Shown piece after piece: positions 28,259 through 59,490 of a stretch of 64,000 nucleotides of DNA. The stretch is from contig CBDUMN010000003.1 of NCBI GenBank assembly GCA_965368335.1, forward strand, positions 1,586 through 65,585, given 5' to 3'. Source of the DNA: an uncultured Rhodospirillales bacterium (lineage in GTDB: Bacteria; Pseudomonadota; Alphaproteobacteria; Rhodospirillales; JAPHRK01). The translations under genes and the position numbers were made by a program. The stretch's first letter is position 1. Every line of letters begins with the position of its first letter. The notes under the pieces are model-generated. The model did no database searches and was not told where the DNA came from. It was given only the letters and a program-made list of their open reading frames with translations.

Positions 28259-30040
28259 ATGGAAATTCAACAAAAACTCCAGAACGGCCTGATGCTCCAC
28301 CGTAGCGGCGACAAGAAAGCTGCTGAAACGGCGTACCTCGATGTGATTTCTCAAGACCCTCTTCAGGTCGATGCGCTCCATCTACTTGCAGTATTGCGTC
28401 TTGAAGAAGGGCGGCAAGAAGATGCCCTAGAAAATATCGACAAGGCCCTACAAGTGGACCCGGAGTATCCTGCCGCACGGCTCAATCGGGCGAACATTCT
28501 CATGGCGCTTCATCGTCCTCACGAGGCCATAAGAGAGCTGCAGGAACTGAGCATCGCCAAACCGGATTTATTGGAAGTTTATATTAATCTGGGGAATGCC
28601 TTACTTTCCGTCAAAAAGTTTAACGCCGCCCTTATTGAGTTTGACAAGGCGCTCAAGGTTAACCCCAATCATCCAAATGCACGTATGGGATATGGGCTCG
28701 CCCAAGAAGGGCTGGAACACTATGCCGAAGCCGCCGAGGCGTTTAGGGGTGTCCTCAAACAAATACCCAATGAACCAACCGTGTTGGCGCGATTGGCAAG
28801 CGTCAACGGAGAAATGAGCAACCTAAACGAGGCCTTGCAGTATGCTCTTTCAGCCCTGGCCTTTAACACTAAATCGGCAGAAAATTATTATAACGTCGTT
28901 ATCTATGCTGGTGCGTTGGCCGAAAAAGGCGACCCAGCCGGACATCAAGCCCTTCAAAGCCTAGAGAACATCACCAAACCCGAAAGCCCCTTAACCAAGG
29001 CGGCTGAAAAACTCATGGTTTTCTATCAAGGACGGAAATCCCCTCAGGTAAAAATAATCAAGGCGTTAGGCGAAACATTTTCTGAGGAACAGCCAACCAC
29101 GCTTACGATTGAACAAGCCGAAGTGGTGAATGATCAATGGTACGTTATTAAGGATGATGTTCTTTACATAGACCCCCACGCTCATATCCGAGAAACGGAG
29201 CAGCAACCAACCGTGACCCTGCATCCTGGGGGAAAAGCGGTTTTATCCGAAGCCCCCCCTAAGCGCAGAAGCATTGATGAGCCGGTATTCCTCATGGGGG
29301 GATGTGGGAATTACTATCACTGGATTATCGATCATCTGCCAAATCTTATGGCGCTCGAGCAAGCGAATTTATCCAAACAACCACTTATTCTTCTTCATCA
29401 CGACCCATCACCAAATCAGCTGGAAGCTCTTACTTTGTTGGGTATCGACAAAGAAAGACTATGCTTCTTCTCCGACGCGGAAATTTTAGAATGCAGCCAA
29501 CTGTTGCTGCCTTATCTACCCGACAGGCGTCCCAACAAATGGGATGAAAAAAACTGGTGGTGGCAAACGACCGCAACACCCAAGGTTAGCGCATGGCTCA
29601 AAGAACGTTTTGCGCCAACACCAAAGACGGATGCCGCTGAAAAAATTTTTATAAGCCGGAGTACGGCAAAAACACGCCGTGTCGTTAACGAAGCGGAAAT
29701 AGCCAACTTAGCAAAAGCCGCGGGCTACAGGATTGTTGAGCCCGGCATGATGAGCTTTAAAGAACAAGTCTCCATTTTTTCCGCCGCTAAGAAAATTGTA
29801 GCCCCGCATGGTGCAGGATTAACAAACATGGTCTTTGCCCCCGATGGCGTTGAAGTAGTTGAGTTCGTCGGTGAGATTGCTCCTCCTGAATTCTTTGAGG
29901 CGTTGGCAAAAACAAAGAATGCCGCTTATCAGAGAGTAACCTGCAGGCTCAGCGATGGCTTTTCGTCATATCGAAAGCGAGACAACCGGTTCAATGACTT
30001 CATCATTGATCCTGAGGAAGCAAGAAGCGTTTTCACGTAG
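28259..30040 (+). CDS. TPR-repeat protein fused to a GT61/DUF563-type glycosyltransferase
   Basis: The N-terminal ~230 aa are TPR-like (AETAYLDVISQDPLQVDALHLLAVL...). The C-terminal half has GT61/DUF563 hallmarks GNYYHWIIDHLPNL and FISRSTAKTRRVVNEAEI...QVSIFSAAKKIVAPHGAGLTNMVF. Confidence 0.7.
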   Translation: MEIQQKLQNGLMLHRSGDKKAAETAYLDVISQDPLQVDALHLLAVLRLEEGRQEDALENIDKALQVDPEYPAARLNRANILMALHRPHEAIRELQELSIAKPDLLEVYINLGNALLSVKKFNAALIEFDKALKVNPNHPNARMGYGLAQEGLEHYAEAAEAFRGVLKQIPNEPTVLARLASVNGEMSNLNEALQYALSALAFNTKSAENYYNVVIYAGALAEKGDPAGHQALQSLENITKPESPLTKAAEKLMVFYQGRKSPQVKIIKALGETFSEEQPTTLTIEQAEVVNDQWYVIKDDVLYIDPHAHIRETEQQPTVTLHPGGKAVLSEAPPKRRSIDEPVFLMGGCGNYYHWIIDHLPNLMALEQANLSKQPLILLHHDPSPNQLEALTLLGIDKERLCFFSDAEILECSQLLLPYLPDRRPNKWDEKNWWWQTTATPKVSAWLKERFAPTPKTDAAEKIFISRSTAKTRRVVNEAEIANLAKAAGYRIVEPGMMSFKEQVSIFSAAKKIVAPHGAGLTNMVFAPDGVEVVEFVGEIAPPEFFEALAKTKNAAYQRVTCRLSDGFSSYRKRDNRFNDFIIDPEEARSVFT

Positions 30041-30087
30041 TCATGCTGGTTGCCCGGCAAGACACTTTATTAAGTAAGGAGAGCTCT

Positions 30088-31467: not shown

Positions 31468-31480
31468 CCCTATTAAAAAG

Positions 31481-31498
31481 CTAGGGTCAGAACCCTAG
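31481..31498. terminator. short hairpin between convergent operons
   Basis: CTAGGGT-CAGA-ACCCTAG lies between the radical SAM stop (31467) and the galE-like stop, which it overlaps. No obvious U-tract. Confidence 0.35.
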
Positions 31499-32472
31499 GA
31501 ACGGTTACCTTTTTCCAACCAGTCTGAGGCTGTTCGGATAATCGCTTCAAGGTCTGAGTTCGGGTGTCTAAAATTCAGCACGCGTTTGACCTTGTCTGGC
31601 TCGGCAATGAGACAAGCGGGGTCGCCAGGGCGGCGGGGCTTCACAACCGTTCTGACATTTTTACCCGTCACCTTTTCGACCGCGGCAATGACTTCCTTCA
31701 CGGAATGGCCAATGCCGGTGCCTAGATTGTAAGGAGAAAATTCCGGTGTATCTCGAAAACTTTCTAAAGCCGTGACATGGACGGTCGCCAGATCGCTTAC
31801 ATGCACATAATCGCGCACACAACTACCATCAGGCGTCGGATAATCATCACCATAAATTTCCACAACCGTGCCATTGATGGCCGCTTCGAGGATACGGGGG
31901 ATCAGGTGCGGCTCGGGATCATGAGCCTCCCCGACGTCTAAATCCGGGTCGGCCCCAGCAGCATTGAAATAGCGAAGCACAGCGGCTGAAATTCCCTCCG
32001 CCTTGACCATATCCTCAATGATCCGCTCACATGTCACCTTACTCATGCCATAAGGTGAAATTGGGTTGAGCGGCAGGCCCTCATCAATTGAGGTTGCGTT
32101 TTGGTCGCCAAAAATAGTGCAACTACTGGAAAAAACGATCTTCCGAACCCCAGTTTGCTGCATGGCTCGGGCCAATGAGATCATCCCCCCCACATTATTG
32201 TTATAGTAGAGCAAAGGCTGCTCGTTGGACTCTCCTACATAGGCAAATGAGGCGAAATGCATGACGCCTTCGACGCCATATTCGGTCATCACAGCCGCCA
32301 AACGCCCCTCATCGAGGATATCGCCTTCCTCTAACGGCCCCCAACGAACCGCCCAAGCATTTCCTCGGCACAGATTGTCATAGGTCACGGGCACATAACC
32401 GGCCGATGCAAGCGCTTTACAAGCATGGCTACCTATGTAGCCCGCGCCCCCGGTTACCAGGACCGACTTCAT
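31495..32472 (-). CDS. galE: UDP-glucose/UDP-hexose 4-epimerase (GalE family)
   Basis: VLVTGGAGYIGSHACKAL start, YGMSK YxxxK, and GalE-like motifs throughout (DYPTPDGSCVRDYVHVSDLA). Confidence 0.9.
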   Translation of the reverse strand: MKSVLVTGGAGYIGSHACKALASAGYVPVTYDNLCRGNAWAVRWGPLEEGDILDEGRLAAVMTEYGVEGVMHFASFAYVGESNEQPLLYYNNNVGGMISLARAMQQTGVRKIVFSSSCTIFGDQNATSIDEGLPLNPISPYGMSKVTCERIIEDMVKAEGISAAVLRYFNAAGADPDLDVGEAHDPEPHLIPRILEAAINGTVVEIYGDDYPTPDGSCVRDYVHVSDLATVHVTALESFRDTPEFSPYNLGTGIGHSVKEVIAAVEKVTGKNVRTVVKPRRPGDPACLIAEPDKVKRVLNFRHPNSDLEAIIRTASDWLEKGNRS

Positions 32473-33692
32473 TTTTCCGCCTTCCTTTTATCTGCAATAT
32501 CTTCAATAGCCTTCAAAATCGCCGCCTTTGCATCGCCCGGTCGAATAAAATAGTTTAATGGCTTGCCCCATCGATTCGCCTTGAAAACCCCCGTGTCCCG
32601 ATAGGTGGAGATCACCTCTTCCAATTCATCAAGCTCATCGACAACCCGCAATAAAGGGGATTTGATTTTTGGAAAACGATCAAAAAGCTTCGGCATCCGA
32701 TAAGTTACCACCGGCTTGCCATTGGCTAGAGCATTGAGAAACGTTGATGATGTCAACGTCACCACCATATCGACATTCTGATAGGTCTCATCAGTGATCA
32801 ACCGGGAGGAATCCAGGCGCATATATGCGCCAAAGTGATATTCCACATGGTTCCGTATTTCTTCGCTCTCTGACGGATGAAACTTATAGATGGGCGTGAA
32901 AGACGCCAAAGTCAGGATGAATGGCGGGTAGTGCTTTTGCCAATCCTGCATCCTCATTTTTCTTTGCCTGACAAAATTTTGGTCGGGATAAAAAACACTA
33001 AAGATTTCAGGATTTTCTCTTCTCTTAATTTTTGACGAAAACACCCGCTTATCAATCAGCAAAGAGCCGACGATATGGATGTTCTTCTTCGGCACACCGT
33101 AGAGCAAACGCATGGTTTCCTCCGCCGACTTGCCAAAGAGAAAAACGTAGTCGGGATGTGTTTTGCCAAAAGGCTGGGAGCGGTGAATTTGGTTTGCGAC
33201 AAAAAACTTCAAAGAATCGGGAAAATAGCCGAATAGAAGACAAAACCGACGGACAAGAGGATACCACCAGGGGGAAAACTCGGGCTGCGGCTCAAATCCA
33301 TGGAAACCATCCTGAACGGTCATGGTCTTCAGCCCTAACTCTCGCGCTATTCGTCCTAACGGAGCTGCTTTGAGGGTGCCATCATTAAAAGTCAGGAATA
33401 AATCACCATCCGCCATCAGCAAACGGGCTTTTTCACAAGCTAGGTCGATGCAGGCATCCAGATAGCTTTTTCGTATTCCTTTCGCTTTGAGAGCGGCGAC
33501 TGTTTCATCCAGCTTTTCATCCAACTCGACAAAAGTTACGCCAATCTCCCTCGCTTTATCGATCACCCCGCCAACATCGATCTTGGGGGTGATAAAAAGG
33601 ACAAGCTCATACCCTTTGGCCTGAAACTCAGGAAGCAAAACGCCCAGGTGGGCAACCTGGTTACTTGCCTCGCAGTATGAATATATCTTCAT
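32469..33692 (-). CDS. hypothetical protein, possibly a GT-B-fold glycosyl- or glycerophospho-transferase-like enzyme
   Basis: 407-aa ORF coupled by ATGA to galE. Only weak resemblance was seen by eye (two Rossmann-like halves; KFHPSESEE; LTSSTFLNALANGKPVV). No firm motif. Confidence 0.3.
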   Translation of the reverse strand: MKIYSYCEASNQVAHLGVLLPEFQAKGYELVLFITPKIDVGGVIDKAREIGVTFVELDEKLDETVAALKAKGIRKSYLDACIDLACEKARLLMADGDLFLTFNDGTLKAAPLGRIARELGLKTMTVQDGFHGFEPQPEFSPWWYPLVRRFCLLFGYFPDSLKFFVANQIHRSQPFGKTHPDYVFLFGKSAEETMRLLYGVPKKNIHIVGSLLIDKRVFSSKIKRRENPEIFSVFYPDQNFVRQRKMRMQDWQKHYPPFILTLASFTPIYKFHPSESEEIRNHVEYHFGAYMRLDSSRLITDETYQNVDMVVTLTSSTFLNALANGKPVVTYRMPKLFDRFPKIKSPLLRVVDELDELEEVISTYRDTGVFKANRWGKPLNYFIRPGDAKAAILKAIEDIADKRKAEK

Positions 33693-33710
33693 CGCCCGAA
33701 AAACTTCTTT

Positions 33711-34367
33711 CTATGGTTTGACTAAGTAGGAAATGGCATTGGAATAGGGGAGCTTCTCGACAATGATTTTCGTTTTTTCGAGAAATTCCTCAATCGCCTT
33801 GTTTGCTCCAGGAAAAGCGCCATAGTCATCCAAAATAACGATGCCCCCCCGAACCACATGATCAAATAAATTTTCCAGGCAAGCCTTGGTCGGCTCATAC
33901 AGATCCACATCAATATGCAGGAGAGAAATGCGAAGGGCTGGATTCTCCTCTAAAAAAGCCGGAAGCGTTTCGCGCAAATCTCCCGCAATAAGGTCAATGT
34001 TCGTATTGAGCCCCACCTTATCCAAACAGTTGCGCATATCTTCAATTGAGATACTCAGATCCCCCGCCTCAGAAACAAACCGTTGGCGCACCTCAACATC
34101 GGCCTCAAATTCAGCATCGGGAAATTTCCCAAAAGTATCAAACCCAATGATACGGCGACTTTTCGGATTCTCAAAAAGAGCTCGGAATTTAACCAGGCGA
34201 GAAAACGACGCCCCTTTAAAAACGCCACACTCAACGACTTCGCCCGGCAAATGACTGATCCGACGGTAAAGGTCCATATGGGTAGCAAACTTGCTAAAGC
34301 GTTCGACCGGGGCGGTTAAATAATATCCATTCTCGTAATCAAACTGTTTTTCAAAATCATAATCCAT
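33711..34367 (-). CDS. TylF/MycF-family (macrocin-type) sugar O-methyltransferase
   Basis: GEVVECGVFKGASFSRL SAM-binding motif and GGIVILDDYGAFPGANKAIEEF. The 218-aa size is typical. Confidence 0.75.
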   Translation of the reverse strand: MDYDFEKQFDYENGYYLTAPVERFSKFATHMDLYRRISHLPGEVVECGVFKGASFSRLVKFRALFENPKSRRIIGFDTFGKFPDAEFEADVEVRQRFVSEAGDLSISIEDMRNCLDKVGLNTNIDLIAGDLRETLPAFLEENPALRISLLHIDVDLYEPTKACLENLFDHVVRGGIVILDDYGAFPGANKAIEEFLEKTKIIVEKLPYSNAISYLVKP

Positions 34368-34421
34368 TTTCTGCCACCCGTTGCTTTATCACTTAAAAAC
34401 CAATCTTAACCCCATTCCATT

Positions 34422-35639
34422 TCATGAAGATTTACTTTGATATTTCTCCATGACTGATCGATAGAGCGATGGCGTCAAACTAAGGGGGCGTTTCCCATCT
34501 AACTCCGCCTGAGCAATGTAAACAGCTAGTGAGGCTTCATGGCGCGCATAATACTCTTCATTGTCAGCCTGAACCAACCCGCCATGAGATCTTCCAATTG
34601 TGTCGTGCTCGGCCGCTCTATGCGAAGCCCACATGGCGCTTGCCCCCTTTTCACGGCCATCTAAACCGGCTAGCAGCAACATCCGCCCCAGACTACAGGC
34701 GACAGGGAATGCCACCGATGTTGTGACATTCCAAGCATCGACACAAACAAACTCTCGGGTGAGGTCTAGGTTAACGCGGGCGGGAGGGAACCCCTCAAAC
34801 CGAGTCGGCACCCCAACCATTTTTTGATGTAAATTTTTTGGCGTATCTTGAAGGAAGTACCGCAGGTACTGAATTTGCGTCACAAAAAGGCGATTTTCAC
34901 GACTTAAGAAATCAGCCAAAACTCTTCGATAATTGCCGCCGTATCGGGAAACTCCGCAGAAGTAAGGATCACCGATCACCGCAACAACCGGCCCCACATG
35001 GTTCAAAATATGCTCTTGTCCAATCAGCGTATTGGGCACCACCAAGGTGGTGTTGTGAAATTTACTTAAATCGATTGTTTCGCAGCTATGCCCTGGAGCG
35101 AGAAGTAAGCTGGCCTCAATCCCCTGTTCTTGAAGCTTTTTAATGAAATGGGAAAAATAAACACGCGACACCCCCTCTTCACGCTTTGCCGGAAAGACCT
35201 TGGCAAAAGTTTCGGGCAATTCCGCAGCCTCAAATACATTGGCTTCGGTATCAATAATGACTTTATGGACTTCCTTGCGCTTCACTGCGAGTTCCAACGC
35301 AGGATAACGTTTTAGGACCAATTCGGCGGCACTGTGATCAACACAAATGATCACTGCCGCTTCCTCTAACCGACCATCTTGATCGGCGACAAAATCAAAG
35401 ATTTCCCAATTGGCGTTCAGGGTATCTATGCAACAGGGATGGAAAGGTTCGGGACAATTCGCCAGAACCTTTTCTTTCAATCTCGGGGCCTCCAAGAGAC
35501 TTTGCGTTACCGGCACGGAAACTTTAAGCCCGGCGCCTGAAAACGGCGCGCAATACCAGGCCAAGCGGTGAAGCACTTCGGCCAATTTCTCTAAACTATC
35601 TAGCGCGGGAAGCACGGAAAGACGGATGGCTTTGCTCAT
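34422..35639 (-). CDS. hypothetical protein (405 aa) inside the nonulosonate operon
   Basis: Long ORF in an operon with short intergenic gaps. No recognisable catalytic motif by eye. The stretch LLLAPGHSCETIDLSKFHNTTLVVPN vaguely recalls the GxGPS region of MptE/Maf-like proteins. Confidence 0.5.
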   Translation of the reverse strand: MSKAIRLSVLPALDSLEKLAEVLHRLAWYCAPFSGAGLKVSVPVTQSLLEAPRLKEKVLANCPEPFHPCCIDTLNANWEIFDFVADQDGRLEEAAVIICVDHSAAELVLKRYPALELAVKRKEVHKVIIDTEANVFEAAELPETFAKVFPAKREEGVSRVYFSHFIKKLQEQGIEASLLLAPGHSCETIDLSKFHNTTLVVPNTLIGQEHILNHVGPVVAVIGDPYFCGVSRYGGNYRRVLADFLSRENRLFVTQIQYLRYFLQDTPKNLHQKMVGVPTRFEGFPPARVNLDLTREFVCVDAWNVTTSVAFPVACSLGRMLLLAGLDGREKGASAMWASHRAAEHDTIGRSHGGLVQADNEEYYARHEASLAVYIAQAELDGKRPLSLTPSLYRSVMEKYQSKSS

Positions 35640-35661
35640 TGGACCGCTCTACACCATCATC

Positions 35662-37905
35662 TTAGAACCACTTTTCGAGCCGATTAAGCGCTATGGCGAA
35701 CCCTTCGCCACCGTTTTTATGTCCCTGCCAAATTTCGGGAATAAACGAAGCCGAGGAACAACACTTCTTCACCTGCTTTGCCAAGTGCTCAAAATCAATA
35801 TCTCCATCCCCGATCTGTAGTCCTTCATCATCGACCCCGCGAGCATCGACAAGATGCAAATGTTTTGAGTAAGGCCCTACGGTTTCAATAAATGAAGCAA
35901 ACGACCAGCCAAACTTTGTACAGGCCAATTTAGAATGAGAGGTATCCAAACAAATATTCGTTTCATATGTTTTGCAGAACCACTCGATTTCATCTGGGTC
36001 CATGAATAAGTTGTGGTAACGCTGCCCCCCCATTAACCAAGGAAACGGTGGCATGGTCTGAGGTAAAAGCTCGACCCCTTCGCTATCAACTCGCAAAAAC
36101 CCTTCTGCGACGCGCTCGTACATCTTGCGCCTGTCTGATTCAGGGATAAAACTCTTCTCTGAAAAGCCCCCAACATTGACAATAATGAACGGACGGTCGG
36201 CACGTTTAAAATAGGGCTTCAACGTCCGGGCCACATCGACAACATTTTGCAATTCACGAATGCCTCGCTCCCAAATTGCATTGTCGTCAGAGGCTAGATC
36301 GAGCAAATAATCACGAGCGAAAACCTCCGGGGAATGAACTACTAAATCCATATCCAGAGGCCCGTCCATATAACTTTCGACGGATATATCCATATCCTTG
36401 AAGCTCAGATGGAACTCCAACAAATCTGGTGCGATTTTCTCGAGAAACTGTTTGTAGTCATGGCATCGGACAGGCACGCCCCATGGATGCCTGAACTTAT
36501 AATCATGAAAAACGTTTTGTTCGCCAATGACATCTGCTTCAAAAAAGAAATCTCCAGCCTTGATATCCCGCGTCGCCAAGCTGCCGACCAACTCACTTCG
36601 CCGGTTGGGCTGGATACCGCGCCCCGGGTTCTTGATATCAATAATATCATCGGTGATGACATCACCCTTCGAAACATCACGAGTAGCAACGAGGCTTTTG
36701 GCGAGGATTTCGCGGTTCATCATTTCGCCCTGGCTTAAAACGCGGACAGGCTCACCAATGGAATCTTCAGTCTGCCGAATGGCCTCAACCATCTCCCGAA
36801 ACTCATCAGGCAATAAACTAATTCGATGGTCGTTGCCTTCTAGGGACCGGTCGACCGTAAAATGCTTCTCAACAATTTTTGCCCCTAGCGCAACCGCCGA
36901 AACAGCCACATGAATACCGCGTTCGTGTCCTGAATATCCCACCGGGCATTCACCGATTTCTTTCAAACGTTTTAGGTATGAAAGGTTGATGTCCTTGAAT
37001 GGTGGCGGGTATGCGGAATTGCAATGAAGCAAGGCAAACTGAGCCCCCTGCCTTTGCAGAAGTTTCACGGCATCCTTGATTTCCTGCTCATTCGACATGC
37101 CGGTCGAGACGATCATTGGTTTTTTAGTAGCGGCGACCGCCGCCAAGAGCTCATGGTTTGTCAGATCTGCGGATGCAATTTTATATGCTTGAACCCCCAT
37201 GCCCTCTAAAGCTTGCAAACTTTCCAAATCCCAGGGCGTACAAAGCGGGATAGCCCCACAACGACGGACATAATTCAGCGCCTCAGCCATTTCCTCGTTG
37301 GAAAGCTGGAACCGTGACAACAGGTCAAGCACATATTGCGACCCCAAATCTTCACTTGGGTCATTCGCAGCATCGGCATTGCGATAGAGGCTATCCATAT
37401 GGCGGAGCTGAAATTTAACGCAATCAGCTCCCGCATCGACGGCAAGGTCGATCAGTTCCTTCGCACGTTTCAAGCTGCCATTATGGTTGTTGCCGATTTC
37501 AGCAATAATAAATGCCTTGGAATCATCGGAAATCTCACGCCCTTCAATATTCATGAAGGATGCTTCATCAAAAGCAATCGCGACGAAATGCCCCATTTCA
37601 TTGACCAGGGGGACAAAGTGGATTTTGCTATCTAGTAGATTTCTAATGACCTCGGGGTCCTCATCAACCCCAGCCACAGTGATTTCCTTGGTCATTAAAT
37701 CTGCGACAGAGCGGTTGATATCAACCTGGTCTTCATTCACCACCCAACGCCTAAAATCGCCGTCGGTAAAAACCCCTTCGATGGTCCCTCTCTCCGTTAC
37801 GGCGCAAACAAAACCCTTCTTGTTCTGGCTCATCTTGATGAGAGCTTCCAAAACCGTTGCATGAGCAAGCAACACGAAAGATTCGACATTTGATTGGATA
37901 ATCAT
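35662..37905 (-). CDS. four-module fusion: CBS pair, NeuB-type nonulosonate synthase, SAF domain and xylose-isomerase-like TIM barrel
   Basis: Residues 1-~115 are CBS-like (GFVCAVTERGTIEGVFTDGDFRRWV). From ~130 comes the NeuB signature AFIIAEIGNNHNGSLKRAKELIDLAVDAGADCVKFQ. The SAF domain is LVATRDVSKGDVITDDIIDIKNPGRGI. The last ~280 aa are sugar-phosphate isomerase/epimerase (AP-endonuclease-2 TIM)-like (HLHLVDARGVDDEGLQIGDGDIDFEHLA). Confidence 0.85.
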   Translation of the reverse strand: MIIQSNVESFVLLAHATVLEALIKMSQNKKGFVCAVTERGTIEGVFTDGDFRRWVVNEDQVDINRSVADLMTKEITVAGVDEDPEVIRNLLDSKIHFVPLVNEMGHFVAIAFDEASFMNIEGREISDDSKAFIIAEIGNNHNGSLKRAKELIDLAVDAGADCVKFQLRHMDSLYRNADAANDPSEDLGSQYVLDLLSRFQLSNEEMAEALNYVRRCGAIPLCTPWDLESLQALEGMGVQAYKIASADLTNHELLAAVAATKKPMIVSTGMSNEQEIKDAVKLLQRQGAQFALLHCNSAYPPPFKDINLSYLKRLKEIGECPVGYSGHERGIHVAVSAVALGAKIVEKHFTVDRSLEGNDHRISLLPDEFREMVEAIRQTEDSIGEPVRVLSQGEMMNREILAKSLVATRDVSKGDVITDDIIDIKNPGRGIQPNRRSELVGSLATRDIKAGDFFFEADVIGEQNVFHDYKFRHPWGVPVRCHDYKQFLEKIAPDLLEFHLSFKDMDISVESYMDGPLDMDLVVHSPEVFARDYLLDLASDDNAIWERGIRELQNVVDVARTLKPYFKRADRPFIIVNVGGFSEKSFIPESDRRKMYERVAEGFLRVDSEGVELLPQTMPPFPWLMGGQRYHNLFMDPDEIEWFCKTYETNICLDTSHSKLACTKFGWSFASFIETVGPYSKHLHLVDARGVDDEGLQIGDGDIDFEHLAKQVKKCCSSASFIPEIWQGHKNGGEGFAIALNRLEKWF

Positions 37906-37946
37906 CTGAAATTTCCATTCTAGAGTTCAGAGAAACCGTTCTGATT

Positions 37947-38675
37947 TCATGATCCGCCCAAATTGGCGTTTTTCTGCCAATCAGGCTTACTGCCGAGGAT
38001 CATTTCGGCCATGGCAAAATCTTCTGGCTCGTCGATATCGATTGATTCCAACTTGTCCAACTCGAACAGGACAATCTTACCACCAAGACGACAACCTGTT
38101 TTTCTCAACAGTTCCGTTTTGAAAATGAAGATCGAGCCATTCTCCTGAAATAATTTGAGCGCCTCAGGTAAATTCTGGCGCATTGGACGATCTAAATAGT
38201 CAAACTCAGCCTGTGCGTCATCAGGGCTCCGCCAAAGGAATGGCGGATCCAATGGGGAAACCGAGACCAACGAATCCGCGCCCGTTTTCTCAAAGCGGCT
38301 TAGCGCTTGAACCAGCCGCTCCGGATGGCGGCAGGGAGATGTTGGCTGCAGCAAAACAACGACATCAGGTAGATACCCCTCGTTCGACTCGTACCAGTCA
38401 AGAGCATGTAAGAGGGCGAGCTCTGTCGGAGCATTATCGGTCGCCAACTCAGTTGGGCGAAGAAATGGCGCCTCGGCCCCCATAGCCAAAGCAATGGACT
38501 GAATATCAGGGCTATCCGTCGTCACCACGACCCTGCCGGGCAAATGACTATTGAGAGCAATCCCTATAGACCAAGCAATCAGAGGCTTCCCCAGAAGCAA
38601 CTTGGTATTTTTACCGGGTATGCCCTTTGAGCCTCCTCGCGCAGGAATAATACAGATGCATTCAGTCACAGCCAC
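37947..38675 (-). CDS. acylneuraminate cytidylyltransferase family (CMP-nonulosonate synthetase, NeuA/LegF-like)
   Basis: CIIPARGGSKGIPGKNTKLLLGKPLIAWSI and LLQPTSPCR motifs. Confidence 0.9.
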   Translation of the reverse strand: MAVTECICIIPARGGSKGIPGKNTKLLLGKPLIAWSIGIALNSHLPGRVVVTTDSPDIQSIALAMGAEAPFLRPTELATDNAPTELALLHALDWYESNEGYLPDVVVLLQPTSPCRHPERLVQALSRFEKTGADSLVSVSPLDPPFLWRSPDDAQAEFDYLDRPMRQNLPEALKLFQENGSIFIFKTELLRKTGCRLGGKIVLFELDKLESIDIDEPEDFAMAEMILGSKPDWQKNANLGGS

Positions 38676-41368: not shown

Positions 41369-41438
41369 GACGCCCTACCTCTATAAGCTGGAAAGGAAAA
41401 ACTATTGTAATATCAGGGCATCATCTAGCCTAAATGAT

Positions 41439-42956: not shown

Positions 42957-43181
42957 AGGATTCTCCTCATTAGCCAGTTTCAAGGCTATCGACCGACCGT
43001 CAGTCATCCTTCTGGATATGAACCAGCCTTGAATCTTATGTTCCGGTATATGGTAAACCTAAAAATAGATATCAAGGCGGCGACAACGGAGTTGGCCGAT
43101 AGCTAGCGCCTGGCGGCCACCGCCGATCCAGACAAGCACAGAGTAGCTTAGCGACTCATTCTTGAGAGAATCTTAAAAGGC

Positions 43182-44072
43182 CTACTTACCGTTTTTTAGC
43201 CCATCGATCATGTAGACTAAAATATACCTTTCATGCCCCTGTTCCTGATACCACCCCCGGTGGGCTCCGGCCTGATCGGAGAGTATTAAGGCACCCTTTT
43301 TGGCCAACGCATGAACCCTTCTTGCACGGTTAAAAAACTCATAGAAGGCATAGATACAGCCCGTACGATCGCCAATTTTCTTATTGATGGCACGCAGCTT
43401 TTCTTCCTTGTGAGTCCCTAGAGCATAGGAGTAGGGGCCATCGTCGACGGTCTCCACGTCGGTTAGGTAGACGAAGGCTTTTAACCCTCCATAGGCCCGG
43501 TCGTAATGCCACCCGGCGCAATCGCCCATCGAGCGACGCAAATAAAGATTGGGATTATCAAAACACCACTCCCGATCATCATAACCACTAATGATCGCCG
43601 GAATGAAAGAGCCGGGGCCATGCTCTTCTACAATTTCCTTACTTTCTTCGGACAACAACCGATGGACATTAAAAATATCGATAAATCCAACATCAGGCAC
43701 AGCCCGTACGTTAATGCCGGCAACACCTTCCTTGTCCCGCATTTCGGCATACCCCGGCGCAATGTTTTTTGGCGAGATAAACACACGTTCATCGGAAAAT
43801 TCTTTATCGCCGTTAATGGGCTCGTCGTACTCCGCAAGCGCCGTATCGACTTCCTCCCTGAGTTTGGCGACCTTATCCTCTGTCATAAAATTTTCTACGA
43901 CGACAAAGCCATGGTCCAAAAAAGCCTGTTTGATGCCCATGAAGAACCCATTTTCAGCACGCCTCTCCCAATCGTAAACATAAGGCGTATCCTTTAACGG
44001 CTCACAACCCGCCATCTCCTCAAAGGCGATATCCATCACTTCAAAAAGATCGTCGGTTGAAAGGGTTCTCAT
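43182..44072 (-). CDS. Fe(II)/2-oxoglutarate-dependent oxygenase, phytanoyl-CoA dioxygenase (PhyH)-like
   Basis: FLDHGFVVVENF start pattern, HxD in GWHYDRA, and a distal His in GAHRGW. ATGA overlap with the upstream methyltransferase gene. Confidence 0.5.
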   Translation of the reverse strand: MRTLSTDDLFEVMDIAFEEMAGCEPLKDTPYVYDWERRAENGFFMGIKQAFLDHGFVVVENFMTEDKVAKLREEVDTALAEYDEPINGDKEFSDERVFISPKNIAPGYAEMRDKEGVAGINVRAVPDVGFIDIFNVHRLLSEESKEIVEEHGPGSFIPAIISGYDDREWCFDNPNLYLRRSMGDCAGWHYDRAYGGLKAFVYLTDVETVDDGPYSYALGTHKEEKLRAINKKIGDRTGCIYAFYEFFNRARRVHALAKKGALILSDQAGAHRGWYQEQGHERYILVYMIDGLKNGK

Positions 44073-49085: not shown

Positions 49086-50276
49086 ATGATCTCTCTTGAC
49101 CCTCTCCATCAAGCTTTGCGCAACAATCCTTCCGACCAATCCAATTGGATAAAACTTGGATTGGCCTTACTGCAGCTTGGTTGGCGTCAAGAGCTATTCA
49201 AACTCTGTCAAGTCCGCCAGGACCAATTCGGCGACGGTCCCCTTCTGTTGTTTACGATGCTCAACCATGCATCGACCCCTCAACTGAAACGCCGGATAGT
49301 CCAAATGGCCAATGATTCTCCGGCAGGGACACCGCTCACCATTATTTTTGATTTTTTCGCCGGTTGCCTCACACTGCTTGAAGGTAATCCTCGCAGTGGA
49401 TTTAGCTTTTTAGATAAAGCCGCCAGGAGTGCGGTCAATTTTGGAAGCCTGTTTCGGGATCACGAAAAGCTATCGAACATTATCATCCAACATTTTTTGA
49501 TCAGGCCGCCTGCTGATGTAGCCGAAACGGACCTTTCGTGGCCCCATACCGAACTCCCCCCTCTTGAGTGGGGAACGTCGGCACAGCAGCATCAAAAAAT
49601 CGAAAAAAATCTGGTCATCATGGCCTGCTGCAACGATACCTACCATCGTCGCTTTGGCGAGGAATTCATCAAAACTCTTTCGCCTTATGGCCACATCCAT
49701 ATCCACGTCGCCAACGCATCTGTAGAGATGCGGGAAGAATTGGAAAAGGATGCGGAAAATAAAGCCTTAAGCTACTCTTATGAAGACTCCGGTTCCCATG
49801 GAATCGGCCATTACTACGCCGTCATGCGGTTCCTCAACGCACGGGCGATTATGGAGTTCTTTAACCAGGATCTCCTTATTTTAGATATCGACTGCGAGAA
49901 AGTGTCGAACTTACCTGAACTCATCGAGGCCTCACAAAAGCACGATGTGAGCTATTTCAGAACCGGCAACTACATGCCCTGGCTCGACCACCACGCAGCT
50001 TATATGTATCTAGCGCAAACGGCCGGAGGACAAGCCTACGCTTCGCGCCTAAGGTCCTATATTGCCTCGAAACTAAACAAAGCCTGTTGGATGCTCGACC
50101 AATCATCCATGTGCTCTCTTTATAATTTTTATCTAAGCACCGATTTTCATGACGGGAAAACACCGGTCGATCTGCATACTTTCAAGCAGTCTGACGGATA
50201 CGATTTCTGGTCCTATTTTCAGCCAAGCGGAACTGCTGAAGAAAAATGGGAATATCGCCTACAAAAAAACGATTGA
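49086..50276 (+). CDS. hypothetical protein, possible GT-A-like nucleotide-sugar transferase
   Basis: 396 aa. The only hints are a central LVIMACCNDTY...LLILDIDCE (DxD-like) arrangement. The N-terminal ~60 aa look TPR-like. Confidence 0.3.
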   Translation: MISLDPLHQALRNNPSDQSNWIKLGLALLQLGWRQELFKLCQVRQDQFGDGPLLLFTMLNHASTPQLKRRIVQMANDSPAGTPLTIIFDFFAGCLTLLEGNPRSGFSFLDKAARSAVNFGSLFRDHEKLSNIIIQHFLIRPPADVAETDLSWPHTELPPLEWGTSAQQHQKIEKNLVIMACCNDTYHRRFGEEFIKTLSPYGHIHIHVANASVEMREELEKDAENKALSYSYEDSGSHGIGHYYAVMRFLNARAIMEFFNQDLLILDIDCEKVSNLPELIEASQKHDVSYFRTGNYMPWLDHHAAYMYLAQTAGGQAYASRLRSYIASKLNKACWMLDQSSMCSLYNFYLSTDFHDGKTPVDLHTFKQSDGYDFWSYFQPSGTAEEKWEYRLQKND

Positions 50277-50357: not shown

Positions 50358-52280
50358 TCATGAGCCCCCCTTGCCAATTGGGCCAGGTCTCAGCCCCTCT
50401 CCATAATGTTTCCACATGGTTAAATACAGGGTTTCGAGGTTCCTGACCTTTGCAGTTGTATCGAACAAGGGGTGGGTTTTTCTGTTTTCAACAACACGAT
50501 ATTTTAGTTTCCGCAGCCGACCGATATCTTCAACGATTTCCAGAACAAGATTTTCATACGCCTCAAGATCAGACGCGATAAGTTCTTCCAAACCATGCGA
50601 ACAAAGAAGGCTCTCGGAAACTCTGGAAGCAAAATGGCTCCCAGCAATGGCGACGACCGGGATACCGGCCCATAAGGCGTCCGTTGTCGTGGTGTGCCCC
50701 GTATAGATCCGCGTATCGAGTGCCAAATCGGCCAAAGCAATACGCGCCAGATGCTCAGGCTTTGAAAGCTTATCGGCGAAAATCAAGCGATTGTCTTCTA
50801 TCCCTGCGGCCCGCGCCTGGGCCTTTAAGTTTTTTTCAGCTTCTCGGTTATGGCCGAACAGCCAAAGTACGCTTCCTTGAATTTGATGGAGCAAAGACAT
50901 CCAGACGGAAAACATCTGCCTGTCGATTTTATATGTCTGACAGAAGCAGCAAAATACCAATGCATTTTCCGGCAAACCCTGTGAAGCTCGACTTAGCAAT
51001 TGAGGGCCCACAGCCTGTTCATTATCGGTTGGCCAGTAGGTCCCCTCAAGATAAGCGGGGGCTTCCGTGAAGAATGGGACATCGCTGGCCGGGCAAACGA
51101 TGTCATCAACAAGTACGTAGTCGAGGAAATCCCCCCCACAGGTACCGGGATAGCTAAGATACCCTACCTGCAACGGGGCTGGCCGTAATGCACAAATTTC
51201 GAGTCGCGAGCCGTCCGTATGCCCCGTCAAGGCGATGAGGATATCAATACCGTCTCGATTGATCCGTTCCGCCGCTTCTCCATCGTTCAAACCAGCAACA
51301 TCGACAAAGCGGTCGCACGATGCGGTTATCGCTTGGCGGTGAGGACTTCCGTCATCGGGACCGAAAGAATAGGCAAACACCTCAAAAACATCCCGGTTAT
51401 GCTTGCCATAAAGGCCTGCCGTATTATGGGCGGTGGGGTGATCGTAAAAATTTCCACTCAAATAGCCGATCCGAAGTTTCCCTCCATGGAAGCCACTCTG
51501 GTTAAAGGAAACCCGCTGGCGAATGGGCGCCAATTTATCGACCATCTCCGTCGACCAAGCTTTGGCGACTTCCAAATTTCGCTCTGGATGTGCACTCCTG
51601 GCGATACTCATAAACGGCGTTTCTCCAGGGCGTTCGCCATCGGCCAGGGCCTTAACAGTTTGCTCTTCCATACGCGCCTCAACCTGTTCCATCTCCTCCC
51701 AGGAGCAGGTTTTCTGCAGAATATGGAAAAGTTGCGCAACGGCATCACGATCATCAGGCACACAGGAGACAACCTGATTCAGCATTTGCTTTGCTTCCCC
51801 AAAACGCCCGAGAAGCTCCAGGGCGCAGCCCCGATTGTAAAGGGCGGCGCAATTATCAGGAGCAAACTCAAGGGCTTTGTCAAACCGGCCAAGCGCCTTT
51901 TCTAGTTCCCCCATTTTGAGATAAACGCCACCCAGATTAAGATTTAATACAGGGTTCTCGGGGGCAAGACTCAAGGCCTCTTTAATAACGGACTCGGCAC
52001 ACGTAAGATCGCCACGGGCAATCAGGGTCAAACCGAGATTAACCGACGCTTCACTGAATGATGGATTAATCTCGAGCGCCCTACGATAATGTGCTTCTGC
52101 TTCGGCATACCTCCCCAAATCTGACAAGGCATTACCTAGATTGCTAGGCACAGCTGCCGATTGCGGCGCAAGCTCCATAATACGCTTTAACAGATGTATG
52201 GCCGCCTCCGCCTCCCCTGCGGCCCTAAGCGCGCTGGCCTTCTCAAAAAGAACCGCAAGATTGTCTTTCGGCATGTCCAT
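50358..52280 (-). CDS. TPR-repeat / GT41 (O-GlcNAc-transferase, SPINDLY-like) glycosyltransferase
   Basis: Roughly five to six TPR units in the N-terminal ~200 aa. The C-terminal GT41 hallmarks are LRIGYLSGNFYDHPTAHN, DGIDILIALTGHTDGSRLEICALRPAPLQVGYLSYPGTCGGDFLDYVLVD, and ALVFCCFCQTYKI. Confidence 0.8.
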   Translation of the reverse strand: MDMPKDNLAVLFEKASALRAAGEAEAAIHLLKRIMELAPQSAAVPSNLGNALSDLGRYAEAEAHYRRALEINPSFSEASVNLGLTLIARGDLTCAESVIKEALSLAPENPVLNLNLGGVYLKMGELEKALGRFDKALEFAPDNCAALYNRGCALELLGRFGEAKQMLNQVVSCVPDDRDAVAQLFHILQKTCSWEEMEQVEARMEEQTVKALADGERPGETPFMSIARSAHPERNLEVAKAWSTEMVDKLAPIRQRVSFNQSGFHGGKLRIGYLSGNFYDHPTAHNTAGLYGKHNRDVFEVFAYSFGPDDGSPHRQAITASCDRFVDVAGLNDGEAAERINRDGIDILIALTGHTDGSRLEICALRPAPLQVGYLSYPGTCGGDFLDYVLVDDIVCPASDVPFFTEAPAYLEGTYWPTDNEQAVGPQLLSRASQGLPENALVFCCFCQTYKIDRQMFSVWMSLLHQIQGSVLWLFGHNREAEKNLKAQARAAGIEDNRLIFADKLSKPEHLARIALADLALDTRIYTGHTTTTDALWAGIPVVAIAGSHFASRVSESLLCSHGLEELIASDLEAYENLVLEIVEDIGRLRKLKYRVVENRKTHPLFDTTAKVRNLETLYLTMWKHYGEGLRPGPIGKGGS

Positions 52281-52478: not shown

Positions 52479-53552
52479 ATGGACGTATTGACCGCCAGCA
52501 CCAAACAGACCAGTTTTGCACTTGCCCGCCTATTAACCCAGATGAGCGAGAGCCAAGAGGCGCGCATTAAAACCGAAATGCGCCCCATTGAAGCGAAGCA
52601 TGATAAACGGGTCCATAATGCAGAATTGCAGATGGATCGCTGGAAAAAGGTCAGCAAAGATATTGGCGAAGCTACGTCAACACTCGCAGGGAATATCAGC
52701 AACTTAAAATCAATCCGATCAAAACTCGACGGACTGCTCTCAGCCGTCAACAAAGCCGACCAGCGGGCCTCAGACCCCAGCTTTAACCCTGATGGGTATG
52801 CAGCCTCATTCGACGCTCTTATGAAAAGCATTTCCTCCAGTACGGAAGACTCCGGGCGCGACGTCAATCTGATCGGAAAACGCAAAGTCTCACTTGAATA
52901 TCCAACCGATATTTATGGCCGTAAAGAAGAGGTTGGGAGCGTTTCTCTGGATAGCGACTATTACATCATCGATAACGATGGCGGGCGCTGGGTTCTTGAT
53001 CGGCAAGCCGGAAATCTTAAACGTTATACCGATTATCCAAATGGCGCGACGAGTTCTGTCGGCAGCTTTCCAACGGGCATTCAGTTAGACAGCATCGATT
53101 CAGACGACAACCTCACTTTTACCATTGCTCCAAATACGGCATCCCCAGAAACTTTTTCCGGGACGCTCTATCGTAGCGGACTTAACATTATGGATTCATG
53201 GTACTATGAGGGGCTTTCAACGGCGGATGCGCGAAATGCCGCAATTAGTGACATTCATTCTGCACGCAAAGCTATAAAGCTCGAAATTGCGCGATACGAA
53301 AGCCAGTTCTCTCTGGCTCAGTTCTATGAAGAACGCGCCAACGGCGAGGTCGGAGGCCTACGGGAAGATAAGAACGAAGCCTTGTTAGCCAAAGCAAAAG
53401 AGGTGGGAAAAGCCAAAGAAAAACTCATCCGGGAATTTCAAGCAGCGCAAGACGCCATCCAGATGTCGACGATACTTAAAAGAGAATATGCATCTTTTCT
53501 CAAACCAACGGCCAACACGCTGGGTCGGCAACTGATCAGCATCTTAAGTTAA
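52479..53552 (+). CDS. hypothetical protein with degenerate flagellin-like termini
   Basis: 357 aa. The helical N-terminal ~110 aa, a Ser/Thr/Asp/Gly-rich middle and a helical C-terminus parallel the flagellin at 60394-61311. YAASFDALMKSISSSTEDSGRDVNLIG matches EYSDQLKELAVQIEKLVSDATYQGLNLLN. FSLAQFYEERANGEVGGLREDKNEALLA matches LQVRADFTEEYIGTLETGAGKLTVADLNEEGANLLA. Confidence 0.4.
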   Translation: MDVLTASTKQTSFALARLLTQMSESQEARIKTEMRPIEAKHDKRVHNAELQMDRWKKVSKDIGEATSTLAGNISNLKSIRSKLDGLLSAVNKADQRASDPSFNPDGYAASFDALMKSISSSTEDSGRDVNLIGKRKVSLEYPTDIYGRKEEVGSVSLDSDYYIIDNDGGRWVLDRQAGNLKRYTDYPNGATSSVGSFPTGIQLDSIDSDDNLTFTIAPNTASPETFSGTLYRSGLNIMDSWYYEGLSTADARNAAISDIHSARKAIKLEIARYESQFSLAQFYEERANGEVGGLREDKNEALLAKAKEVGKAKEKLIREFQAAQDAIQMSTILKREYASFLKPTANTLGRQLISILS

Positions 53553-57515: not shown

Positions 57516-57555
57516 CTCTCAAACTAGCCGTAAACCGGCTTTGCCATTAAGCAGA

Positions 57556-59490
57556 TCAGCAAACGTCTTTCCACAATCGCTCAAGAACCGTCTCCATATC
57601 AATGCAACGGGCCTTGAAATCAAACAACGGTGCTTTAGAGATTTTTTCAGCAGCATCCTGCTTGAAAGCTGCGCGCCCAGCCTCATCTTTAATCCATCGC
57701 TCAACTAAGGCTAAGTAATCTTTCCGGCTGGTCGCCACGCAACTTTCCGACATCCCCATTTGCGTCAGAACTTCCGCACTTACCTTATCCGCCGTGCGGC
57801 TACCTTTCATACAGATAGGAGGAACGCCAAAACCTGCACTTGTCACCACACTGAGATTTTGGTGACCGCTTGTAGGTACTAGCAGCAAGTCAATCTGAGA
57901 ATAAAACTCTGACTGCGTCGCGCTTTGAATAATGTCGATCCGGTGTGAAACACCAAAATTTCCAAATAAATCTAGGACTTTGCCCGCATTCTTCGCATTT
58001 TGGAAATCGTAATCCTGCATCAGCAAGGTTGCGCTAGGGTATTTTCTGAGAAGCTCCGCCCACAGTCCAACAGAATCTGGCGTCAACTCACACAGCTCGG
58101 CATCGACGCCAAACGTCAGAAGGTCACTCGTCCGCTCAAGAACAGAACGATCGTCGGGCTTAGGCACTTCCACCAGCATGTTTCCATGCTCAAGCAACAC
58201 GATCTTTTCTGCTAAAATACTCTTGTTTTCAGGAACCATCTCGCCCCCCAACATGAGAGCATCCATGTTCTTGAGCCCCGTTCCATAAGGCGTTCCATGG
58301 AGTGAAACTTGGAGAGGCGCCATACGGGCGCCGAATGCCCGCAACAACTGAGGATCATTAAACCCAACGGTATTGATAAAAATATCGACCCCTTCCGCCA
58401 AGCAAATGGCCGCCAAAGTCACCGGGTCCATTTCTCGAACATCGTGCCAGATATCAAATGCTTTTTGGTAATGGACATTTGATGCGTCACTTAAAGCCCC
58501 AAAACCGAAGCCAACCGTCCGGAAACGGGCGGCATTTCGGTGAGCGAGAATATTTGCAAGCGCTTTCCCCTCACTGCGACGGGATAGAGAGCCCAGCAGA
58601 TAGCCAGCGGTCAAAATCGGTTTGTCGGTTGCCTGCCCCTCATCAAAGCCTTGGTCTTCTTCGCCGAACCGAGCACCCCATTGAGCAGCCAGCTCACAAA
58701 GGGCTTCTTCCGTTGATTCTGGCGATAAGGCTAAATCTGAAATTGCTTTTGCAAAGTATTCAGAATTCTCGCTATCAAGATGCATCGCCCATTTGTGGAC
58801 GGACTGGCTTTGGCCATACTCACCAATGAGCGCGAGAAGAGATCCTAACATACTGGCGATATCAGGGTCTTCGGCTAGACGGTGCATTGCACCACGTAAA
58901 ATATCGACAGCTTCTTGGTAACGCCCCAATACCGTCAGGCAATTCACTAACCCAAGATAGGATTTCTTATCATCCTGCTTAAAATGAATACATTGCAAAA
59001 ACCAATGTATCGCCATCCCCCAGTCTTTAGACGAAACGGCCGCGACGGCACGAGTGAATAGTGGATTATCCTCAATATCGATAAAGGCGCTCGATAAGCT
59101 TGGAATCGATTGTGGCAAGATTTCCTTTAAGGCCGGAACGGAAGGAACCGAACTTGCTAATTTGGCATAAAACAGTGACTTGGTCAGTTCCCCTGCAAGG
59201 GCGTAAAGCACCGCCAAAAAATCGGCATATTCACTGACATTCGAATCCGCATTTAGCGCGGCTTCGCCAAGCGCCACGGCTTCAGCCCAGTCATCCTCAA
59301 GAAAGCGTCCAATTGCCAAAACATAGTACGCTTCAGCATAGATGGACGTTTCTTTTAAATCGGCTTGTTGCTCAAGAAAAGCAGCGCAGGCATTGCTAAT
59401 ATCAGACCAATTACCGTCCGCAACACCTTCGCCAACAATCGAAAGGAAACCCTCCCGCGTCGTAGCGGCATCAATAACCAAATTACTCAT
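57556..59490 (-). CDS. TPR-repeat / GT41-like glycosyltransferase (FlmG-like architecture)
   Basis: The N-terminal ~280 aa are TPR-like. The C-terminal half follows the GT41 layout (GVDIFINTVGFNDPQLLRAFGARMAPLQVSLHGTPYGTGLKNMDALMLG ... LLTFGVDAELCELT). It lies 7 bp downstream of flaF. Confidence 0.7.
   Translation of the reverse strand: MSNLVIDAATTREGFLSIVGEGVADGNWSDISNACAAFLEQQADLKETSIYAEAYYVLAIGRFLEDDWAEAVALGEAALNADSNVSEYADFLAVLYALAGELTKSLFYAKLASSVPSVPALKEILPQSIPSLSSAFIDIEDNPLFTRAVAAVSSKDWGMAIHWFLQCIHFKQDDKKSYLGLVNCLTVLGRYQEAVDILRGAMHRLAEDPDIASMLGSLLALIGEYGQSQSVHKWAMHLDSENSEYFAKAISDLALSPESTEEALCELAAQWGARFGEEDQGFDEGQATDKPILTAGYLLGSLSRRSEGKALANILAHRNAARFRTVGFGFGALSDASNVHYQKAFDIWHDVREMDPVTLAAICLAEGVDIFINTVGFNDPQLLRAFGARMAPLQVSLHGTPYGTGLKNMDALMLGGEMVPENKSILAEKIVLLEHGNMLVEVPKPDDRSVLERTSDLLTFGVDAELCELTPDSVGLWAELLRKYPSATLLMQDYDFQNAKNAGKVLDLFGNFGVSHRIDIIQSATQSEFYSQIDLLLVPTSGHQNLSVVTSAGFGVPPICMKGSRTADKVSAEVLTQMGMSESCVATSRKDYLALVERWIKDEAGRAAFKQDAAEKISKAPLFDFKARCIDMETVLERLWKDVC

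Follow-up and report, generated by a model that had tools for sequence, protein, structure and literature searches.

How a cytoplasmic O-glycosyltransferase chooses its protein substrate is understood for few enzymes only, namely FlmG, Maf-1 and the Maf-2/GlfM pair. A 64,000-nucleotide (nt) stretch of DNA from an uncultured Rhodospirillales bacterium (contig CBDUMN010000003.1, positions 1,586 to 65,585; here called the window) poses this question several times over. It carries one flagellin gene and two Maf genes beside genes for five glycosyltransferases (GTs) headed by tetratricopeptide repeats (TPRs). The tails of these five proteins belong to four catalytic families, two of which are experimentally uncharacterised. 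Do the heads bring all of these enzymes to the same flagellin, and how would they share the work? All five proteins consist of an N-terminal TPR head and a C-terminal GT tail, and it is the number and diversity of such transferases in one island that is unusual. It suggests that tethering to the acceptor, a design known from FlmG of Caulobacter, serves several enzyme families side by side.

The five open reading frames (ORFs) are present where a first-pass annotation of the sequence had placed them. Independent gene callers reproduced the lengths of four of the proteins (505, 396, 640 and 644 amino acids, aa) on identical metagenome contigs (JGI metagenomes 3300010430 and 3300005588; ENA assembly ERZ27250939). 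No other scanned ORF of the window has a TPR match, which, together with the return of the set in a sister contig (see below), speaks against coincidence. For two proteins Pfam bears out the architecture that the annotation had assigned. The first is a 593-aa TPR-GT61 protein (28259..30040, +). Its head (approximately aa 10-250, nt 28286-29008) matches several TPR families at 50-70 bits, including TPR_2 (70 bits) and TPR_1 (63 bits). Its tail (aa 352-534, nt 29312-29860) matches Glyco_transf_61 (PF04577) over the full length of the model (1-137 of 137) with 93.6 bits against a cutoff of 27, as members of CAZy family GT61 do. Matches to PDB sequences in phmmer are confined to the TPR part. The second is a canonical TPR-GT41 protein of the OGT/SPINDLY type with 640 aa (50358..52280, -). 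It combines a head at approximately aa 5-210 (nt 51651-52268; TPR_2, 92 bits) with a Glyco_transf_41 domain (PF13844, 329 bits) and keeps the catalytic lysine, K451, in the motif 'CQTYKID'.

The 644-aa protein (57556..59490, -) is a divergent TPR-GT41-like protein with a TPR region at approximately aa 52-250 and a GT41-like region at approximately aa 290-644. Its Pfam matches are weak (PF13844, 29.2 bits against a cutoff of 25; TPR_19, 24.6 bits), the former still above the gathering score that defines CAZy GT41, as it is in the 640-aa protein. Three further observations uphold the assignment made from the sequence alone. BLASTP aligns the protein with the 640-aa protein over aa 141-641 (E=3e-18), phmmer aligns it with SPINDLY (7y4i) over aa 161-644 (E=7e-22), and homologues at 33-57% identity bear both TPR and PF13844.

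For the remaining two proteins the annotation had proposed TPR-like N-termini and GT-like C-termini tentatively, and both proposals hold. The 505-aa protein (47249..48766, -) has no match in Pfam; in NCBIfam it matches the glycosyltransferase family TIGR04372 at aa 278-480 with 189.4 bits against a curated cutoff of 45. Its 153 detected homologues are mostly 500-520 aa long, many have TPR matches in Pfam, and several are named TIGR04372 by their source. Positions 16-138 of a 58-sequence family profile match the TPR domain of OGT as well as consensus TPR proteins, with E-values down to 3e-75. The AlphaFold2 (AF2) model (mean predicted local distance difference test score, pLDDT, 95.6) has seven helices at aa 7-133 (nt 48368-48748), equivalent to about three TPRs and a cap, followed by a GT-B-like alpha/beta region at aa 139-504 (nt 47255-48352). 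The closest PDB structures in Foldseek are human OGT, XcOGT of Xanthomonas, SPINDLY and a GT9 enzyme.

The 396-aa protein (49086..50276, +) has no match in Pfam, NCBIfam or PDB sequences, and no Pfam or NCBIfam family, GT8 and GT6 included, covers it or the tails of its 72 relatives. A word-indexed homology search with this protein found three relatives, and an exhaustive profile search found 651. Pfam detects a TPR in 14 of the 73 relatives used to build a family profile, and that profile finds TPR structures at positions 5-137 with E-values down to 2e-49. In the AF2 model (pLDDT 95.3), helices occupy aa 5-146 (nt 49098-49523) and an alpha/beta domain occupies aa 177-392 (nt 49614-50261). Foldseek places this domain among GT-A enzymes (LARGE1, GlyE, glycogenin, GT6 and XXYLT1; for LARGE1, probability 1.0 and E=1.5e-4). 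Structure comparison thus leads to OGT, SPINDLY and GT9 for the 505-aa model and to GT8/GT6-type GT-A enzymes for the 396-aa tail.

With its Rossmann-like fold, the 396-aa tail also carries the DxD motif of GT-A enzymes, D267-I-D269 (nt 49884-49892, coordinates verified). Across the 73 relatives D267 is invariant and D269 at least 90% conserved, and Y186, R248, W335, D338 and Q339 are likewise invariant. The tail shares its fold and the position of the DxD, after the fourth strand, with retaining GT8/GT6 enzymes such as GlyE of S. pneumoniae, glycogenin, XXYLT1, LARGE1 and BoGT6a. GlyE and XXYLT1 extend O-glycans already on protein. Unlike these enzymes, the 396-aa protein has no sequence-level membership of either family, and the fused N-terminal TPR head is foreign to them.

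Enzymes of the OGT/SPINDLY class (human OGT, XcOGT, TtOGT and Arabidopsis SPY) glycosylate serine and threonine residues of proteins in the cytoplasm, and they share the combination of a TPR superhelix and a GT-B region with part of the set. The 640-aa protein is a clear member, the 644-aa protein aligns with SPY from aa 161 to its end, and the 505-aa model is nearest to OGT and SPY. In contrast, hhalign of the TIGR04372 and GT41 families aligns the TPR region alone, so that at profile level the TIGR04372 catalytic domain shows no homology to GT41; we therefore gave up the hypothesis of TIGR04372 as a divergent form of GT41.

Are the five proteins related to each other? In pairwise comparison their heads, from 133 to approximately 260 aa long, show only generic TPR similarity. 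The tails represent four families (GT61, TIGR04372, GT8/GT6-like GT-A, and GT41 twice) and two folds. The only paralogs among the five are the two GT41-type proteins, at 21% identity. We also considered a common flagellin-binding head module that had duplicated recently and rejected it on the grounds that the heads share just this generic similarity. To judge from the sequences, the plan of TPR head and GT tail is convergent and not the product of local duplication.

The genetic setting ties these proteins to the flagellum. Genes are closely spaced between 16 and 64 kb, with gaps mostly below 100 bp, and flagellin, FlbT, two FlaF and two Maf genes lie there together with the TPR-GTs. The flagellin (60394-61311, -) has 305 aa, 17.7% of which are serine or threonine, with enrichment at aa 121-210. 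It is followed by FlbT (59871-60320, -) and FlaF (59498-59938, -), and the 644-aa gene lies directly downstream of this trio with a 7-bp gap to FlaF. On its other side it adjoins the Maf genes, which encode proteins of 664 aa (55521-57515, -) and 660 aa (53564-55546, -), each with Maf_flag10_N and an MptE-like domain in Pfam; NCBIfam adds a weak PseD match. A Pfam screen, the sole search made of this region, found no TPR match in the C-terminal 240 aa of either Maf at E-values up to 1. Between the Mafs and the TPR-GT41 gene lies an orphan ORF (52479..53552, +) whose 357-aa product is conserved and has no match in Pfam, NCBIfam or PDB, nor to flagellin; a pseudo-flagellin or a factor resembling GlfM is conceivable. 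A second FlaF paralog (46757-47170, -) is directly downstream of the TPR-TIGR04372 gene and is followed by a PglD-like acetyltransferase (46014-46694, -). In all, the island encodes eight GT-like proteins: the five with TPR heads, plus a 427-aa GT4-type protein (Glycos_transf_1 in Pfam and NCBIfam; 38833..40116, +) and the two Mafs, all three of which have no N-terminal TPR.

Pathways for activated sugars are interleaved with these genes. An operon on the reverse strand (31495..38675) is assigned to nonulosonic-acid synthesis by Pfam and NCBIfam. It encodes an epimerase/dehydratase, a 407-aa protein, a TylF methyltransferase, a 405-aa protein, a 747-aa fusion and a CMP-sugar cytidylyltransferase. 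The fusion (35662-37905, -) is unusual and joins a CBS domain, a NeuB synthase, a SAF domain and a C-terminal xylose-isomerase-like TIM barrel (AP_endonuc_2). The two proteins of about 405 aa (32469-33692 and 34422-35639, -) have no family assignment; the former may be transferase-like, given its matches below threshold to Capsule_synth and to TIGR04396 (surface carbohydrate biosynthesis). Sugar-tailoring genes follow (40130..45841, -; Pfam, NCBIfam) and encode a 412-aa methyltransferase, a B12-binding radical SAM enzyme, a PhyH-like dioxygenase and a 590-aa methyltransferase. Close to the flagellin gene, a DegT aminotransferase and a 4,6-dehydratase-like enzyme (61452..63651, -; Pfam) resemble PseC/PseB or LegC/LegB, which catalyze early steps of nonulosonic-acid synthesis.

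A second donor-sugar pathway (16014..28230, +; Pfam) is located 5' of the TPR-GT61 gene. Its genes encode an epimerase, an HldE-like kinase/cytidylyltransferase, a SIS isomerase, another epimerase, a 205-aa protein and an APH-type kinase, and further a split transketolase, two DegT aminotransferases, an RmlD-like reductase and a radical SAM enzyme. The TPR-GT61 gene is embedded in the same operon (16014-31467, +), of which it and a radical SAM/SPASM gene are the last two. A module at 20235-28230 (+) is shared with plasmid pDCAR1 of Solidesulfovibrio carbinolicus (NZ_CP026539.1, 96740-121795). The common genes are the 205-aa protein, the APH-type kinase, the split transketolase (53-61% identical), the radical SAM enzyme (46%) and the RmlD-like reductase. 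On the plasmid the module adjoins pseB/pseC, a TIGR04372 protein and a Maf-like protein. It has the look of a conserved sugar-modification route not yet described. When plasmids were searched with the TIGR04372 and GT61 proteins, the contexts were otherwise mostly of the polysaccharide type, and this locus was the one informative exception.

The transferases are soluble proteins. At most two hydrophobic segments, and these marginal, were seen in any of the 43 proteins scored, so the window encodes no polytopic membrane protein and among these 43 there is no flippase, oligosaccharyltransferase (OTase) or WecA-type initiating transferase. Direct cytoplasmic transfer, which the first-pass annotation had preferred over en-bloc transfer, fits this absence. 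It is no discovery: direct, transferase-by-transferase glycosylation of flagellin is the standard view, because according to the FlmG paper flagellin is glycosylated independently of an OTase, by glycosyltransferases that act one after another on the protein. The reading of the locus as a flagellin glycosylation island is borne out by the flagellin, FlbT, FlaF, Maf and nonulosonic-acid genes interleaved with the TPR-GTs.

Much of this arrangement recurs elsewhere. A sister contig from the same metagenome (L017) carries orthologues at 57-76% identity of the same set, consisting of TPR-TIGR04372, TPR-GT-A, TPR-GT41, the 357-aa orphan (73% identity), two Mafs and the GT41-like protein. It encodes seven TPR-headed proteins in all, including a second TPR-GT41 in tandem and two additional proteins of 573 and 570 aa. 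These two (12722-16152, -) and a 518-aa protein of locus L024 (15378-16934, +) have tails of approximately 280-370 aa that match no Pfam or NCBIfam family and may be further uncharacterised transferase or modification domains. The sister locus also contains two 360-aa TIGR04372 proteins without a TPR head (6864-7946 and 8791-9873, -), which flank a 279-aa ORF.

The flagellar linkage is conserved as well. A metagenome-assembled genome of Hyphomicrobiales (L015) has a flagellin 74% identical to that of the window, FlbT, FlaF, a Leg-like pathway with orthologues of the DegT/dehydratase pair at 58-64% identity, and the adjacent PglD, second FlaF and TPR-TIGR04372 genes. This last adjacency is kept in L015, L017 and L018; two FlaF genes are present in L024 too. 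L001, L023 and L024 retain the order FlaF, TPR-GT41-like, Maf, two of them at 35% and 23% identity. In L019, four tandem TPR-TIGR04372 paralogs of 513-516 aa (4513-10698, +; 40-42% identical to the window protein) come straight after a Maf and a TPR-GT41-like gene. In L023 the Maf gene beside the GT41-like homologue is split by an insertion sequence with a DDE transposase (5064-6404 and 11715-13055).

The closest functional precedent, as the annotation had correctly stated, is FlmG of Caulobacter crescentus and Brevundimonas subvibrioides. This 596-aa protein consists of TPR and GT-B; its TPR part binds all flagellins and its GT domain sets the specificity for pseudaminic (Pse) or legionaminic (Leg) acid (PMC7591256; bioRxiv 10.1101/2022.03.25.485807). 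We compared domain plan and gene position. All five window proteins share the soluble N-terminal TPR and C-terminal GT of FlmG. The GT-B tail is seen in the 505-aa protein by its model and in the 640- and 644-aa proteins by GT41 homology, whereas the 396-aa tail is GT-A. FlmG works with a nonulosonic-acid pathway, represented here by NeuB and the CMP-transferase, and its gene lies beside flaF, flbT and flagellin genes; the titles of the references place Caulobacter flmG (formerly flaG) contiguous with flaF and flbT. Among the five, only the 644-aa gene shares this position, and its contiguity with flaF-flbT-flagellin is kept in L023 and L024. FlmG is reported to be confined to Caulobacterales and to be a single enzyme in genomes without Maf; the window, in contrast, has two Mafs alongside five TPR-GTs, whose tails belong to four families and include a GT-A.

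Two other systems provide partial parallels. Maf-1 of Shewanella oneidensis binds flagellin via a C-terminal TPR, Maf-2 needs the helical adaptor GlfM, and the two enzymes modify different serines (bioRxiv 10.1101/2023.12.03.569772). In that system a flagellin GT recognises its acceptor either by a TPR that is part of the enzyme (Maf-1) or with the help of a second, helical protein (GlfM, for Maf-2), and, as in the window, two Mafs are encoded in one island. The TPR of Maf-1 is C-terminal, however, and its catalytic domain is the Maf GT-A; the window Mafs have no TPR detectable by Pfam, and no ORF of GlfM size fits the gaps beside them. Flagellin islands of Enterobacteriaceae resemble the window in having GT41/SPINDLY-type transferases by flagellin genes together with sugar-synthesis and methyltransferase genes, but they hold one to three GTs of one CAZy family per island, sometimes GT41 (PMC4875605), as opposed to eight GT-like proteins from six families in the window. 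Literature searches for TIGR04372, and for GT61 together with flagellin, found nothing relevant.

Taking together architecture, flagellar gene context, conserved linkage, the absence of polytopic membrane proteins and these precedents, we lean by a small measure towards the view that the 16-64 kb block is a cytoplasmic flagellin O-glycosylation island in which the TPR-GTs act on flagellin, each recruited by its own head, some of them initiating glycans and others elaborating them. At least two donor-sugar routes are encoded in it, one leading to a heavily tailored nonulosonic acid and the other a heptose/transketolase/amino-sugar route. The plan of the TPR-GTs is that of FlmG and OGT, with an N-terminal TPR superhelix of three to seven repeats preceding the catalytic domain. 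Each head would dock its enzyme on newly made flagellin before export, or on a flagellin-FlaF complex, and the tail would then transfer one particular activated sugar. The labour is probably divided. The canonical GT41 protein, the Mafs and perhaps the GT41-like protein would start glycans on serine and threonine. The GT8-like GT-A protein, the GT4 protein and possibly the GT61 and TIGR04372 proteins would extend or decorate sugars already bound to the protein. If some enzymes start glycans and others extend them, parallel and serial steps are probably mixed. The sequences and models establish the architectures, families, folds and solubility of the proteins and the conserved linkage to flagellin, FlaF, FlbT and Maf genes, and from these we infer that the heads bind flagellin, which sugars are donated and in what order the enzymes act.

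Several observations weigh against this view. The heads are mutually dissimilar and differ in length, so a common ligand is not indicated by their sequences. Two of the five fusions are unremarkable in themselves because TPRs are the normal architecture of GT41. A genome scan with a 10-sequence TPR-GT-A alignment yielded nine loci, and in the seven with full-length TPR-GT-A relatives tblastn found no homologues of the flagellar and glycosylation genes of the window; in one of the relatives' loci (L011) the genes are unrelated by Pfam. Remote TPR-GT-A relatives at 26-29% identity (in genomes of the cultured Rhodospirillales Hwanghaeella, Aestuariispira and Curvivirga) lie outside flagellar loci, and one TIGR04372 homologue sits in a housekeeping gene context. 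The TPR-GT-A and TIGR04372 families as a whole are therefore not flagellin-specific. Finally, the 644-aa protein may not be a transferase at all, judging from its donor site.

In an alignment to SPINDLY and to the structure of the TtOGT K341M variant, the position of the conserved GT41 lysine, which is the nucleotide-phosphate-binding K341 of TtOGT and the lysine of SPY 'NNLAK', is occupied in the 644-aa protein by Glu468 (nt 58087-58089). Proteins P0274-P0278 and the L023 homologue share this glutamate, as does every close homologue, with identities as low as 24%. Remoter flagellar relatives have arginine or methionine, whereas canonical GT41 proteins of the same loci, like the 640-aa protein, retain lysine. 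The 'G-x-TTT' loop is absent too. Such a donor site, conserved yet non-canonical, would mark a protein that is either re-tooled for another donor or non-catalytic. It is possible, if not the expectation, that the 644-aa protein is not an OGT-type transferase. It could be catalytically dead and bind flagellin as an adaptor for the Mafs next to it, much as GlfM serves Maf-2, or it could be a re-tooled enzyme with a donor not linked to uridine diphosphate, for example CMP-nonulosonate, which would make it the functional counterpart of FlmG. Besides the substitution and the lost loop, this is favoured by the place between FlaF and Maf, kept in four lineages, and by the similar place that those reference titles give flmG. 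The GT41-like region is nevertheless conserved in length and aligns with SPINDLY from end to end, which suggests a retained fold and possibly a retained activity.

How would the enzymes divide the work? Each TPR-GT and each Maf might attach its own monosaccharide or nonulosonic-acid derivative at its own subset of serine and threonine residues, with no chain formed, much as Shewanella Maf-1 and Maf-2 or the multiple Mafs of Campylobacter do. A TPR head makes most sense where the protein itself is the acceptor. The methyltransferases, B12-radical SAM enzyme, PhyH-like dioxygenase and acetyltransferase could yield several derivatives of one sugar. The paralog arrays of related loci and the different serines used by the two Shewanella enzymes also suit this division. 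Still, we think purely parallel decoration unlikely. Tails from such different families and of two folds suggest chemically different steps, and GT8/GT6-like and GT4 enzymes, which typically are sugar-to-sugar transferases, point to transfer onto sugars.

The opposite extreme, and the model of the first-pass annotation, is a strict assembly line, in which the five TPR-GTs act in sequence on a single O-linked oligosaccharide and add one residue each while tethered by their own heads. The variety of GT families, at least two donor pathways, the absence of lipid-carrier machinery and the general acceptance of sequential transfer are in keeping with it, and the modelled GT8-like fold of the 396-aa protein resembles the chain-extending GlyE, XXYLT1 and LARGE1. 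The details fit poorly. The GT4 protein and both Mafs have no TPR heads, the sister locus has TIGR04372 paralogs without TPRs, and one of the five would-be workers lacks the catalytic lysine. To our knowledge, every characterised GT41 enzyme glycosylates protein side chains directly; two GT41-type proteins thus argue for parallel initiation, and with two Mafs they would give four initiators. The four tandem TPR-TIGR04372 genes of L019 and the copy numbers that differ between sister loci are a misfit with a fixed chain of one enzyme per residue. By analogy with Maf-1 and Maf-2, the four paralogs look more like diversification of donors or sites. Taken strictly, the assembly line is improbable.

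We are just as doubtful that the heads bind other partners, such as each other, FlaF/FlbT, the export gate, or hook-associated or non-flagellar target proteins. Their mutual dissimilarity, the FlaF paralogs that consistently adjoin TPR-GTs, and the relatives of two families outside flagellar loci would all be explained. Set against this, the TPR binds flagellin directly in both studied cases, FlmG and Maf-1, and the linkage to the flagellin gene is tight and conserved. That all or part of the island serves to produce capsule or lipopolysaccharide instead of a flagellin glycan, with the TPR-GTs as polysaccharide enzymes, is very improbable: homologues with GT61 only occur on Azospirillum plasmids in polysaccharide-type loci and a TIGR04372 gene lies within a pure sugar-biosynthesis cluster in L016, but the island has no flippase, polymerase, export protein or WecA-type polytopic initiating transferase, and its TPR-GTs are interleaved with flagellin, FlbT, FlaF and Maf genes.

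Upstream of the island, the window encodes FlgE, FlgI, FlgK and a FlgL-like hook-associated protein of 554 aa (12088-13752, +). The listed TTG start of the latter overlaps the end of FlgK by approximately 110 nt, so translation probably begins further downstream. Between the genes for hook and hook-associated proteins and the glycosylation island lies a gene (13730-15826, -) for a PAS histidine kinase that has a hemerythrin domain at its C-terminus.

If the favoured mechanism holds and the heads bind flagellin, the design of tether plus catalyst would be a general principle and not a peculiarity of Caulobacter. The five proteins would then constitute a natural set of interchangeable donor modules for one acceptor, useful in glyco-engineering, and a defined system for asking whether chain extenders must recognise the protein under the glycan. 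More boldly, we speculate that the TPR acceptor-binding head is a general and repeatedly evolved rule for cytoplasmic flagellin glycosylation, that the island is a protein-templated assembly line with starters and extenders from unrelated GT families, each tethered, and that the lysine-less GT41-like protein is either an OGT-derived, FlmG-type nonulosonate transferase or a dead adaptor presenting flagellin to Maf; in this full form the proposal is a long shot. Two targets stand out for the families concerned: the uncatalogued TPR-GT-A family, which has approximately 650 relatives, and the GT41 subfamily in which a change from lysine to glutamate is conserved.

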